Sequence record: OQ708376.1
Direction: 5' to 3' (one strand)
DNA from: Escherichia phage vB_EcoM_CRJP21
DNA length: 64,000 nucleotides
The notes under the pieces are model-generated. The model ran no database searches, was not told the origin of the DNA, and saw nothing but the letters and a program-made list of their open reading frames with translations. Within the stretch, counting starts at the first letter, position 1. Each line of letters starts with the position of its first letter. Shown piece after piece: positions 23,555 through 31,640 of this stretch. The position numbers and the translations under genes were made by a program.

Positions 23555-28812
<5,258 letters not shown>

Positions 28813-28840
28813 TTAAAAAATATGGGACAGTATAAAAACC

Positions 28841-28851
28841 TGTGCTATAAT
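28841..28851 (+). promoter_or_regulatory. Extended -10 promoter TGTGCTATAAT (second TGnTATAAT at 28768-28776)
   Basis: Exact 11-mer about 90 nt upstream of SSB gene. Confidence 0.5.
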
Positions 28852-28938: not shown

Positions 28939-29991
28939 ATGAAATCTCTAGCTGAAATTCGTGCACACCTAAAAGCAGAACAAGAAAAAGCAGAAGCTCA
29001 AAAGAATGGTACATTTACTGGCGAGCGTAAAGCTGATTCGTTCTTAGCTTTCTGGAACGTACCTTATAACGAACCACTAAACCTACGTTTTCTACCAGAT
29101 GCAGATGAGTCTAACCCATTCTTCTGGCGTGAACGTGACATGATTAACCTAACTTTCAATGGTGTAGTCGGTATGCACACTGATAAAGTTACCGTTCAAG
29201 TACCTTGTAACGAAATGTGGGTTCCTAAATCCTGTCCGGTTCTGAAAGAAGTACGTCAATGGTTCCAAAGTGCGAATGAAACAGGGAACGAAGAACTAAA
29301 AGCAATGGCTGGTCGTTACTGGAAGAAGAAAACCTATCTAATGCAATGTTTTATTGCTCCTGATAGCGTTGCAGTAAAAGACGACATTGCACCAGAAAAT
29401 CCAATTCGTCGTATTCTGGCTAACAAAGATATCTTTGATAAAGTTAAATCCATCCTGCTAAACCCAGGCATCAAAGAGTCTCCAACTCACTACGTTCAAG
29501 GTCGTGATTTTGGTATTGTTAAAACTAAGAATGGTGGTGGTTATAATAGCTACGACATGTCTCAATTCTCCATGTCTGAGCGTCCACTAAACGAAGAAGA
29601 ACTAGCAGCAATTGAAAAATATGGCCTATACAATCTAAATGATTTTATGCCAAAACAACCAACTCCAGAAGAGTTGAAAGCAATTGAAGAAATGTTCGAA
29701 GCATCAGTAAATGGTGAAGCATATGATCCAGCACGTTGGGCATTTGCATATCGTCCAGCAGGTGTACCAAAACCTAACTCTGGAACTGTTACTGAATCAA
29801 AACCAACTCCTGCTCCAGTACAACAAGAGTCAGAACCTGCACCAGTAGCACCTACTGCTCCAGTTACACCAGCCCCACAAGCTGCTCCAGTAACTCCAGT
29901 CGCTACCCCAGCAGCAACCACTCCTGAAGCACCAAAAGAACAACTATCTGCATCTGCACTAGTTGCTCGTTTGAAACAACAAGGTAAGTAA
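28939..29991 (+). CDS. Single-stranded DNA-binding protein (T4 gp32-like) with Pro/Ala/Thr-rich C-terminal tail
   Basis: LNLRFLPDADESNPFF resembles gp32 AVIRFLPSKNDEQAPF; His/Cys cluster HTDKVTVQVPCNEMWVPKSCP; located upstream of uvsX. Confidence 0.6.
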   Translation: MKSLAEIRAHLKAEQEKAEAQKNGTFTGERKADSFLAFWNVPYNEPLNLRFLPDADESNPFFWRERDMINLTFNGVVGMHTDKVTVQVPCNEMWVPKSCPVLKEVRQWFQSANETGNEELKAMAGRYWKKKTYLMQCFIAPDSVAVKDDIAPENPIRRILANKDIFDKVKSILLNPGIKESPTHYVQGRDFGIVKTKNGGGYNSYDMSQFSMSERPLNEEELAAIEKYGLYNLNDFMPKQPTPEELKAIEEMFEASVNGEAYDPARWAFAYRPAGVPKPNSGTVTESKPTPAPVQQESEPAPVAPTAPVTPAPQAAPVTPVATPAATTPEAPKEQLSASALVARLKQQGK

Positions 29992-30009: not shown

Positions 30010-30037
30010 GGGGCAACGGAGTTTGCCCCGTTTTATT
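30010..30037 (+). terminator. Rho-independent terminator
   Basis: ggggcaa-cggag-tttgcccc followed by GTTTTATTT. Confidence 0.75.
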
Positions 30038-30060
30038 TCATAAAATTCAAGGAGCGAATT

Positions 30061-31179
30061 ATGAAAATGACAAGTGGTTTTGCGAACATTCTTAAAAACA
30101 GTACTGGTAGTGTTAAAAAGAATACTGGTGTTAGTGTTGGTTTTCATGATCCAGATACATGGGTTAGTACTGGTAACTACGCACTAAATTATCGCATCAG
30201 TGGCTATTTTGACCGTGGTATCCCACTAGGCAAAGTAACTATGTTTGCTGGTGAATCAGGTAGTGGTAAATCTTTTATCGTATCTGGTAATATTGCACGT
30301 GAAGCTCAAAAACAAGGCATCTTTGTTGTTATGATTGACTCAGAGAACGCATTGGATTCAGATTGGCTTCAAGCACTTGGTGTTGACACTTCTGAAGAAA
30401 AACTTTTGAAAGTCAATATGGGTATGATTGGTGACGTTGCAAAATTCACCTATGAGTTCATTGAAGGATATCGTAAAGAATACGAAAATACACCTAAAGA
30501 TGAACGTCAAAAAGTATTGTTTATTATTGATTCAATTGGTATGCTAAACACTGAAGTAGCCAATGATCAAATGAAAGCGGGTAACCTTAAAGGTGACATG
30601 GGTCATAAACCCAAACAGCTTAAAGCATATATCACAAACTGTGTAAACTCTATTGGTTCATTGAACATTGGTATGGTTTGCGTTAACCACAGTTATGAAT
30701 CTCAGGACATGTTTAACCCAGATCCTAAAGTTTCAGGTGGTAGTGGTTTGATTTATGCTTCATCTATGGTTATCGCAATGGGTAAATTAAAACTTAAAGA
30801 AGATGAAGACGGAAATAAAACTTCCGAAGTAAATGGTATTCGTGCTAAATGTAAAGTCATGAAGACTCGTTACAACAAGCCGTTTGAAGATGTAGAAATT
30901 AAAATTCCTTGGGATAAAGGTATGGACCCACGTAGTGGTCTACTAGATATGTTTGAAAAATACGGTCTAATCACTAAATCAGGTAACCGTCTATTGTATG
31001 TTGATATTGTAACTGGCGAACAGATTCTAAAATATCGCAAAGAGTGGATGCGTAATGAAGATTCATGTCTTGATTTGGTAATGCATCAATTTAAAAATCA
31101 TCCTTTGATTGAAGAAGTTAAAGAAGAAGAAAAAGGTGATGAAACTTTTGGTACTGATGTGGATATTAGTGAGGAATAA
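30061..31179 (+). CDS. uvsX: RecA-like recombinase UvsX
   Basis: Walker A GESGSGKS; MDPRSGLLDM matches T4 UvsX IDPYSGLLDM; CVNHSYESQDMF matches AINHTYETQEMF. Confidence 0.9.
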   Translation: MKMTSGFANILKNSTGSVKKNTGVSVGFHDPDTWVSTGNYALNYRISGYFDRGIPLGKVTMFAGESGSGKSFIVSGNIAREAQKQGIFVVMIDSENALDSDWLQALGVDTSEEKLLKVNMGMIGDVAKFTYEFIEGYRKEYENTPKDERQKVLFIIDSIGMLNTEVANDQMKAGNLKGDMGHKPKQLKAYITNCVNSIGSLNIGMVCVNHSYESQDMFNPDPKVSGGSGLIYASSMVIAMGKLKLKEDEDGNKTSEVNGIRAKCKVMKTRYNKPFEDVEIKIPWDKGMDPRSGLLDMFEKYGLITKSGNRLLYVDIVTGEQILKYRKEWMRNEDSCLDLVMHQFKNHPLIEEVKEEEKGDETFGTDVDISEE

Positions 31180-31640
31180 TGAAACCTTGGCATTGGATTA
31201 TCAAAGATGATAAATCTAAAATTATTGAAATGATTGAGTTCTTTAACAAAGAAGTTGAAGAAGCTCGTCGTGAAGTAAAGAAGATTGGCATCATTGAAAA
31301 AATTGCTCAAGAGATTCCTGGCTGGCATGAGACGCGTCTAAGCCAGCTTCAAGAACTTGAAGCAGTATTGGAAATGTTAGAAATTGAAATGCGTCAGGTA
31401 CAAGCCGAGAAGTTCAAATACTTTCTCGAAGGATACCGCCGTGCACTATCTTCATCTGACTGTAAAAAGTATGTTGAAGGTGATAAAGATGTTTGTGAGT
31501 TAGCAGAACTTATAAACGAGGTATCTTATATAAGAAATACATATTCAAGTATTGTTAAATCCTTAGAGATGAAAGCTTTTCAGTTAAACAATATTGTGAG
31601 ACTACGTGCCGCTGGTATTGAGGATGCACGTTTAGAATAA
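31179..31640 (+). CDS. Hypothetical protein, possible recombination mediator UvsY-like
   Basis: 153 aa directly downstream of uvsX; weak C-terminal resemblance to T4 UvsY. Confidence 0.35.
   Translation: MKPWHWIIKDDKSKIIEMIEFFNKEVEEARREVKKIGIIEKIAQEIPGWHETRLSQLQELEAVLEMLEIEMRQVQAEKFKYFLEGYRRALSSSDCKKYVEGDKDVCELAELINEVSYIRNTYSSIVKSLEMKAFQLNNIVRLRAAGIEDARLE

Follow-up and report, generated by a model that had tools for sequence, protein, structure and literature searches.

A variable, near-neutral linker and a conserved basic C-terminal tip in the gp32-family single-stranded DNA-binding protein from an Escherichia jumbo phage

Introduction

The gp32 protein is the textbook phage SSB (single-stranded DNA-binding protein), with its acidic C-terminal domain taken as the hub of both partner recruitment and self-regulation, and the tails of SSB proteins are known to vary. 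Here, we have analysed the gp32-family SSB of Escherichia phage vB_EcoM_CRJP21, encoded at positions 28939..29991 of the + strand of a stretch of 64,000 nucleotides (sequence record OQ708376.1; hereafter, the window), with an ATG start, a length of 350 amino acids and a stop codon. An earlier note on this DNA had described a gp32-like protein that carries a low-complexity Pro/Ala/Thr/Val-rich tail in place of the acidic one, and had suggested that the phage may use a different interaction mode. We have found that this tail consists of two parts: a near-neutral linker that is hypervariable among related phages, and a terminal tip that is conserved and that matches the C-termini of T4-type gp32 proteins in register.

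Among the systems with which the protein can be compared, gp32 is a monomer that forms cooperative filaments and Escherichia coli SSB is a homotetramer, while T7 gp2.5 has an acidic tail with a terminal aromatic residue. Ala/Pro-rich linkers of similar composition, e.g. those of the lipoyl domains of 2-oxo-acid dehydrogenase E2 and the Pro-rich spacer of TonB, would be expected to behave as extended, semi-rigid and non-sticky spacers; the proteins that carry them are unrelated to the CRJP21 SSB, and the resemblance is physico-chemical only.

The tail of T4 gp32 has one structurally mapped partner contact, that with Dda, which is recruited through the amphipathic helix of residues 248-270 (A255, V258, L262 and F265) and not through charge alone; the acidic stretch 273-301 has been proposed to regulate the binding of single-stranded DNA (ssDNA) instead (He et al. 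2024, PMC11551737). This proposal agrees with earlier models, which have the C-domain folded back close to the DNA cleft (PMC5892887; PMC12893549). The SSB of E. coli resembles the CRJP21 SSB in having an oligonucleotide/oligosaccharide-binding (OB) fold core, a disordered, Pro-rich and variable linker (56 residues, next to 58 in CRJP21) and a conserved terminal peptide of 9 residues, which docks on partner proteins (PMC7145534); it differs in belonging to another OB-fold family, and in ending with the acidic DDDIPF and its terminal Phe, whereas the tip of the CRJP21 SSB is a predicted basic amphipathic helix. In T7 gp2.5, also a phage SSB, the C-terminal tail contacts partners and modulates DNA binding (PMC10359462); this protein is of a different fold family and has no long neutral spacer.

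Neither the gene nor its family or annotation is new. In the literature that we have searched, no description was found of the modular anatomy of this tail in the jumbo-phage clade, of the conservation of the tip, or of its correspondence to the T4 terminus.

Results and discussion

A conserved tip at the end of a variable linker

The tail of the CRJP21 SSB follows the core motif YDPxRWxxYRPAGV (residues 262-276) and comprises the linker, residues 278-335 (29770..29943, + strand), and the amphipathic basic tip, residues 336-350 (29944..29988, + strand; LSASALVARLKQQGK). In the AlphaFold2 model, which was built on an alignment of 92 homologues, residues 280-336 are disordered, with a predicted local distance difference test (pLDDT) value of 43-59 over the linker, and residues 338-348 form a helix. 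Pro, Ala, Thr and Val make up 74% of residues 278-331, the maximum in 15,470 other windows of 54 amino acids from the long open reading frames (ORFs) of the window being 52%; the net charge is 0 over the last 60 residues and +3 over the last 20. The description of the tail as a low-complexity segment that ends in a short basic helix is therefore upheld.

The alignment of the C-termini of related phages separates the two parts of the tail. In a set of 119 homologues from a word-indexed search, every member (119/119) has the motif S-[AT]-[AS]-[DA]-L-[LV]-A-[RK]-L-[KR]-[AN], always at a distance of 8-14 residues from the C-terminus. Of the close homologues, 118/118 carry the tip, as do 90 of 95 distant representatives, where it typically reads ...D-I-L-A-x-I-R-x-R...; it is conserved in frame down to about 45% overall identity. 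The distant representatives come from an exhaustive profile search that returned 1,011 representatives at 50% clustering, 285 of them at E <= 1e-30; tails were analysed in 95 full-length new ones among the latter. The segment that follows YDPxRWxxYRPAGV measures about 30-98 residues among close homologues (family median of the linker, 56-57), and its sequence identity decays to about 10%; homologue P0006, for example, is identical to the CRJP21 SSB at 95% of the core, 39% of the linker and 100% of the tip. The close homologues nevertheless keep the composition of the linker (A/P/T/Q/V, 74%) and a median net charge of -1 to -2. Since its length varies between 30 and 97 amino acids while its composition and near-neutrality are kept, the linker behaves as would be expected of a spacer.

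The variation of the linker is likely generated by slippage, since its DNA contains an imperfect 27-nt tandem repeat (29840..29900, + strand; APVAPTAPV / TPAPQAAPV...; Tandem Repeats Finder period 27, 2.3 copies), alongside a family of direct repeats in four copies, and since strains that are 97-99% identical differ by in-frame linker indels, which yield proteins of 341-355 amino acids. These same repeats and indels, and the fall of linker identity to about 10%, would also be expected if the Pro/Ala/Thr-rich stretch were a neutral slippage expansion behind a core that alone matters. We consider that explanation improbable: all full-length members analysed have a linker, of 19-97 residues, which is never lost and always ends in the in-frame tip, and whose composition is preserved in the close family, so that slippage accounts for the variability of the linker, but not for its universal retention together with the tip. 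On the opposite strand lies an ORF of 119 amino acids (29562-29921, - strand), rich in Gly, Ala, Val and Thr, which is unlikely to be a gene and mirrors the strand that encodes Pro, Ala and Thr.

An error of sequencing or annotation, with a frameshift hiding an acidic tail, had also been envisaged. Downstream of position 29640, both of the other reading frames are rich in stop codons and contain no acidic stretch; moreover, more than 20 independently sequenced phage genomes share the reading frame, and the in-frame tip is conserved over hundreds of metagenomic homologues. Such an artefact is refuted by these observations, and the probability that we assign to it is close to nil.

The Pro/Ala/Thr-rich composition is not a property of the whole family. 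In the 95 distant representatives it is not kept (median P/A/T/V fraction, 0.44); the linkers of the deeper relatives are Ser/Thr-rich or strongly acidic, with net charges of -8 and below in 15 of the 95 and an extreme of -18. The composition is limited to one subclade: as a trait of the CRJP21 tail it stands, but the same tip occurs elsewhere on Ser/Thr-rich or acidic linkers. Because the distant linkers are acidic, mixed or motif-bearing, the subclade of CRJP21 appears as a stripped-down version of the tail, which consists of a neutral spacer without aromatic residues and of the tip.

Internal acidic-Pro-Phe/Trp motifs, e.g. DDDIPFDT, are carried by 14 of the 95 distant members and are absent from the CRJP21 SSB. 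A tip of the bacterial SSB-Ct type was looked for in the latter and not found, the C-terminus being basic and the linker having neither an aromatic residue nor an acidic-Pro-Phe motif. Examples of the internal motifs are DDDIPFDT, EDDDPPFDT and DEDDVPFES, in P0109, P0110, P0149, P0122, P0132, P0139 and others; the gp32 of KP15 (L002) has an internal EDDGVPFDLDD, of the same acidic-Pro-Phe type as the E. coli SSB tip DDDIPF. From their sequence, such motifs may mimic the host SSB in the contact with its partners.

Several members carry two copies of the tip motif, one in the linker and one at the terminus (P0020, P0023, P0025, P0102, P0121, P0153, P0191 and P0234, among others), as in P0191, which reads ...ADLLAKLKK...STADLLAKLKARQQG. 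Since a second copy can occur in the linker, as is the case with modular short linear motifs, the tip motif is a duplicable module. A beta-clamp-binding motif (QLxLxL) was considered for the segment KEQLSASAL and rejected, as the segment is off consensus and its Gln-Leu is not conserved beyond the closest subclade.

Probable correspondence of the tip with T4-type C-termini

For the comparison of C-termini, twelve T4-type gp32 genes were taken from GenBank records. These proteins end in a short motif in which an acidic residue precedes a Phi-Phi-x-x-Phi triad, as in DLDDLLNDL of T4, DLDKLLDM of KP15 and SLDDLLDEI of Acj61; further termini are SVDDILNDLI of Pm5461, LDALLADLELDG of K567 and MSYFARLAEED of S-RIM2. 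The tips of the jumbo-phage clade only were converted to an ungapped position-specific scoring matrix (PSSM) of 9 columns, with empirical null distributions; 9 columns were used since T4 gp32 ends four residues past the anchor, and a PSSM of 13 columns gave T4 a score of -2.8, which is an artefact of the register.

The PSSM scores 8.6-12.0 bits at the extreme C-termini of the gp32 proteins of five Straboviridae (T4, KP15, Acj61, K567 and Pm5461), in the expected register, with p values of 0.0005-0.003 against random windows and of 0.0008-0.017 against shuffles of their own tails. The D/A-Phi-Phi-x-x-Phi motif at the C-terminus, which we propose here as a feature of the family, is also found in the CRJP21 SSB, which ends in ...SASALVARLKQQGK; the comparison of SVDDILNDL from Pm5461 with SVDDLLSMIRNRK from P0109 illustrates that the charged positions are switched. 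Since the tip profile matches the T4-type termini in register, the hydrophobic core of the terminal motif would be shared and its charge alone switched, which makes the basic tip a probable counterpart of the motif that ends T4 gp32. The basic helix that had been noticed at the end of the protein is thus present, but it is probably not new, as it lies in register with the ends of T4-type gp32 proteins.

The clade from which the 285 representatives and the 95 examined tails were drawn keeps the terminal helix in the absence of the acidic segment. The strict conservation of the tip, in proteins that dispense with the acidic segment, argues that what is ancient in the tail, and cannot be spared, is the terminal helix and not the charge.

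Loss of the acidic domain and a proposed mechanism

The acidic C-terminal (A) domain, a feature of the gp32 family, is absent from the CRJP21 SSB. Next to its net charge of 0, the last 60 residues carry -11 in T4, -14 in KP15, -11 in S-RIM2, Acj61 and P-TIM68, and -12 in Pm5461; nine of the twelve T4-type proteins lie between -7 and -14, the others being XacN1 (-6), AG3 and F365 (-2 each). The tail thus differs from that of T4 in being neutral, Pro/Ala/Thr-rich rather than Ser/Asp-rich and devoid of aromatic residues, and the tips differ as well (+3 against -6 in T4); like the tail of T4 and RB69 gp32, it is a disordered C-terminal region that ends in D/A-Phi-Phi-x-x-Phi. No counterpart of the Dda-binding helix 248-270 has been identified in the CRJP21 SSB, which has YDPxRWxxYRPAGV at that position.

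Because Dda uses the helix 248-270, the lost acidity predicts the loss of a self-regulating flap more directly than a new mode of recruitment. The earlier note was right that the acidic domain is missing; the different interaction mode that it suggested from this loss gives way in our reading to the predicted lack of an autoregulatory flap.

We propose, with moderate confidence in the model as a whole, that the protein acts as the replication and recombination SSB of a jumbo phage of the 121Q/PBECO4 type, and that its tail is a tether with a docking tip. By homology, the core would bind ssDNA, and cooperativity would be mediated by the N-terminal helix. The fast-evolving and compositionally constrained linker of about 58 residues would be a stiff, extended and non-sticky entropic spacer, by which the basic amphipathic tip of 11-15 residues, a tethered short linear motif, would be held off the SSB-coated ssDNA and would dock on the surface of a protein. 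An electrostatic fold-back on the DNA cleft, as proposed for T4, is predicted to be absent or weak, because the polyanionic Ser/Asp segment is missing. The recruitment of Dda through an amphipathic tail helix offers a T4 parallel for such docking (PMC11551737), and the scheme would be that of the linker and tip of E. coli SSB (PMC7145534).

Candidate partners of the tip are the adjacent UvsX-like recombinase, UvsY, the helicases and the SSB itself, through its core or as another monomer. The UvsX-like protein has a conserved acidic C-terminal tail, the net charge of its last 30 residues being -8 here, and -8 and -11 in two syntenic relatives; the acidic tail of UvsX and the basic tip of the SSB may be complementary in charge. 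The syntenic recombinases lie at 7326-8414 in L014 and at 7244-8389 in L016; the latter ends in ...NIEDQPF, which is SSB-tip-like.

Several observations weigh against the T4 correspondence or the docking role of the tip. The match of the tip with the T4 terminus rests on a motif of 9 columns, and short amphipathic helices may converge. The termini of three cyanophage-type gp32 proteins score weakly (2.6-6.0 bits; p 0.01-0.04 against random windows and 0.007-0.02 against own-tail shuffles), and the Phe/Trp-anchored tips of AG3, K440, F365 and XacN1 show no PSSM match (-4.7 to -0.1 bits; p 0.13-0.42 and 0.15-0.47, respectively). The tip helix 338-348 is modelled with only moderate confidence (pLDDT ~67). 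In T4 gp32 itself, the first peptide screen did not cover residues 281-301, and the terminal DDLLNDL motif has no partner assigned to it (He et al., PMC11551737). Lastly, the linker of the CRJP21 SSB keeps a few Glu residues (net charge, -3), with which a weak electrostatic fold-back would be possible.

The neutral, acidic and mixed linkers that occur on one and the same tip constitute a natural separation-of-function set for the roles of the polyanionic segment and of the tip. Helix destabilisation and recombinase loading may be different in a gp32 homologue that lacks the acidic flap, which is relevant to isothermal amplification with gp32, UvsX and UvsY.

The N-terminal helix and its resemblance to the tip

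The N-terminal helix comprises residues 4-22 (28948..29004, + strand; SLAEIRAHLKAEQEKAEAQ) and is modelled with a pLDDT of ~74. The N-terminus reads MKSLAEIRAHLK; M1, R8 and A9 are nearly invariant, and the conserved pattern of the helix, S-x-A-E-[IL]-R-A-x-L, resembles STAELAAQM of T4, so that a helix of the type S-x-A-E-[LI]-x-A-x-[LM] is common to the CRJP21 SSB and to T4/RB69 gp32, although the KRKST 'LAST' motif of T4 does not occur here. Sequence and model point to a counterpart of the cooperativity (B) domain of T4 gp32. In a low-resolution structure (He et al. 2024, PMC11551737), the N-terminal helix of one gp32 lies against the core helix 141-152 of the next molecule, and this T4 helix aligns with the conserved helix 163-173 of the CRJP21 SSB.

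The comparison of the two ends of the protein bears on an alternative explanation, in which the tip would mimic the cooperativity peptide of the N-terminus, or be a copy of it on a tether, would reach the same surface of the SSB core, be it its own or that of a neighbour, and would tune the cooperativity, end-capping or bridging of ssDNA-bound SSB instead of recruiting other proteins. The best off-tip match of the tip PSSM in the CRJP21 SSB is its own N-terminal helix, KSLAEIRAHLKAE; across the family, the median score of the N-termini is 9.7 bits (random windows, p 0.001; shuffled N-termini, p 0.0095), and in the whole gp32 proteins of T4, Acj61, F365 and K440 the best match of the PSSM is the N-terminal B peptide. 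The in-register 9-mers share [ST]-x-A-[ED]-[IL]-x-A-[KR]-[LI], and their summed BLOSUM score is 7.7 (scrambled tips, -4.2); the surface that receives the N-terminus in T4 has its correspondence in the helix 163-173 mentioned above. However, the similarity is marginal for the CRJP21 SSB alone (6.5 bits, p 0.017 and 0.053), both peptides are amphipathic and rich in Ala, Lys and Leu, and the anchoring regular expression forces two hydrophobic columns; the co-variation of N-terminus and tip is weak (p 0.046 by BLOSUM and 0.13 by identity, from statistics that ignore phylogeny), and T4 gp32 loses no cooperativity when its C-domain is removed (PMC12893549). That the tip resembles the cooperativity peptide is no more than suggestive, and we regard the explanation built on it as rather unlikely.

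A broader form of the same idea, in which the C-terminal motif mimics the N-terminal cooperativity peptide across the whole gp32 superfamily, T4 included, and competes for its docking site or supplements it, seems to us slightly less likely still. If true, it would describe a built-in regulator of the cooperativity and turnover of filaments, of which the jumbo-phage clade would show the 'clean' form (neutral spacer, no polyanionic segment, basic tip), and it would explain in structural terms what the gp32 C-domain does in filament dynamics, a matter that has long been debated. We retain the tethered tip that docks on a partner protein as the preferred reading.

The gp32-family core and its zinc site

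The protein is a gp32-family SSB, as the gp32-like description had it, and all the comparisons agree on this point. The Pfam gp32 family (PF08804) matches residues 49-248 with 30.4 bits (cutoff 26.8; E 5e-7; profile positions 7-200 of 208), and phrog_1192, 'single strand DNA binding protein', matches with an E of 2.9e-101. Direct phmmer comparison with the sequences of the Protein Data Bank (PDB) is barely significant (1gpc, E 0.03), and profile and fold comparisons were therefore needed: hhalign of the profile of the 92 homologues with T4 gp32 gives a probability of 95.3% (E 2e-8), and the top six Foldseek matches of the AlphaFold2 model in the PDB are all gp32 cores, among them RB69 2a1k (E 9e-10), T4 1gpc (4e-9), 2atq and 8gme, the last being the gp32-Dda complex. 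These matches have a target-normalised TM (template modelling) score of 0.60-0.70 and a probability of 1.00, the next match having an E of only 0.07. The bacterial type of SSB domain (PF00436) was not found, the Pfam scan of the protein returning gp32 only.

The OB-fold core corresponds to residues 31-277 (29029..29769, + strand), with a pLDDT of 88-98 over residues ~31-270. Its conserved elements are RFLP (residues 50-53), the cysteines C90 and C99, a YW-KKK cluster (127-131), in which the conserved YW pair is followed by the basic KKKT of residues 129-132, and YDPxRWxxYRPAGV. The RFLP motif had been recognised correctly: in the hhalign alignment, R50-P53 falls on R46-P49 of T4. The CRJP21 SSB has the OB-fold core with RFLP and two zinc-site cysteines in common with T4/RB69 gp32, at an identity to T4 gp32 of ~16% in the structural alignment.

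Of the His/Cys zinc cluster that had been read from the sequence, two cysteines can be confirmed: C90 and C99, which align with C77 and C87 of T4, are invariant in the 119 homologues. The two other ligands of the four-ligand T4 subdomain (His64, Cys77, Cys87 and Cys90) are replaced, N74 being aligned with H64, and L102 (CPVL, not CPVC; Leu in 97/119 homologues) with C90. The His that had been counted was probably H80, which is kept in 57/119 homologues at a position that is His, Asp or Glu in 89/119; E92 is invariant. Not all members of the gp32 family have a full set of zinc ligands, since the gp32 proteins of the cyanophage S-RIM2 and of AG3 (Ackermannviridae) have none of the zinc-site cysteines.

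Genome context

Identity over this region is 99.7-99.9% with PBECO4, 121Q, phAPEC6 and further Escherichia jumbo phages from the genus Asteriusvirus, whose RefSeq records already annotate the gene as 'single strand DNA binding protein'; at the protein level, the identity with the annotated SSB proteins of 121Q, phAPEC6 and JP4 is 99.7%. A 'structural protein' label is attached to the homologue in the 121Q and PA5oct records. Such labels can be traced to virion mass spectrometry of phAPEC6, in which Gp204 (99.7% identical) was detected in purified virions by 4 peptides (17% coverage); its RecA-like neighbour, gp205 and a subunit of a topoisomerase were detected as well (PMC7247149). These data would fit a further explanation of the tail as a virion-incorporation signal that targets the SSB to the capsid, or that binds packaged DNA or internal proteins. 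We hold this to be very improbable: the peptide counts are low, abundant DNA-binding proteins are common contaminants or passengers in virion proteomics, and the tip is common to T4-type gp32 proteins. To our knowledge, T4-type gp32 proteins have not been reported as virion components, and the known capsid-targeting signals of T4 are N-terminal.

Like T4/RB69 gp32, the CRJP21 SSB is encoded among genes for UvsX, UvsY and gp41-like and Dda-like helicases, and the association with T4-type replication and recombination genes that marks the gp32 family is thus present at this locus. The SSB gene is followed by the UvsX/RecA-like recombinase (30061..31179, + strand; Pfam RecA, E 1e-14; phrog_97) and by the UvsY-like recombination mediator (31179..31640, + strand; Pfam UvsY, 25.3 bits with a cutoff of 22.8; phrog_231, E 1e-25), i.e. 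by two of the candidate partners. In 121Q, a DnaQ-like exonuclease, a UvsW-like helicase, polymerase fragments, a primase, a gp41-like helicase and a Dda-like helicase lie beyond UvsX and UvsY. The adjacency of SSB and uvsX is kept in distant relatives, as is the synteny of the SSB with UvsX, UvsY, the DnaQ-like exonuclease and the UvsW-like helicase. In a search for a gp59 helicase loader, tblastn with Pm5461 gp59 matched 1,911 phage records, with no RaK2/121Q-type phage among the 30 matches listed; in the replication module, a part of the 350-kb genome, ten unassigned ORFs were compared with Pfam and PHROG, and no gp59 domain was found in them.

The stop codon of uvsX and the start codon of uvsY overlap (31176-31182 of the window) in an ATGA-type junction at 31179; this overlap suggests that the translation of recombinase and mediator is coupled.

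Upstream of the SSB gene lie the large subunit of the terminase and, between the two, a protein of ~430 amino acids (27461-28747, + strand) that matches phrog_13484 'virion structural protein' and contains no Pfam domain. This is an odd place for a structural gene, within the replication/recombination block, and the gene is syntenic in distant relatives, in the interval between terminase and SSB (4595-5887 in L014 and 4302-5612 in L016).

A consensus scan identified two promoter-like sites upstream of the SSB gene (28749..28776 and 28824..28851, both on the + strand), the second ~88 nt upstream of the start codon. Both have the pattern GGGACA-N16-TATAAT, with TG ahead of the -10 hexamer; the exact pattern occurs twice in the 64-kb window, where 0 occurrences are expected, and the two sites share the unusual -35-like hexamer at a spacing of 75 nt. 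At the other end, a hairpin that resembles an intrinsic terminator (GGGGCAACGGAGTTTGCCCC plus a T-run; 30010..30039, + strand) directly follows the SSB stop codon, so that the SSB gene, which lies between the structural gene and uvsX, looks like a transcription unit of its own. The hairpin is strong and bidirectional, being terminator-like on both strands. The leader of ~88 nt between the second promoter-like site and the ATG of the SSB gene is A-rich, and recalls the unstructured operator in the mRNA of T4 gene 32.

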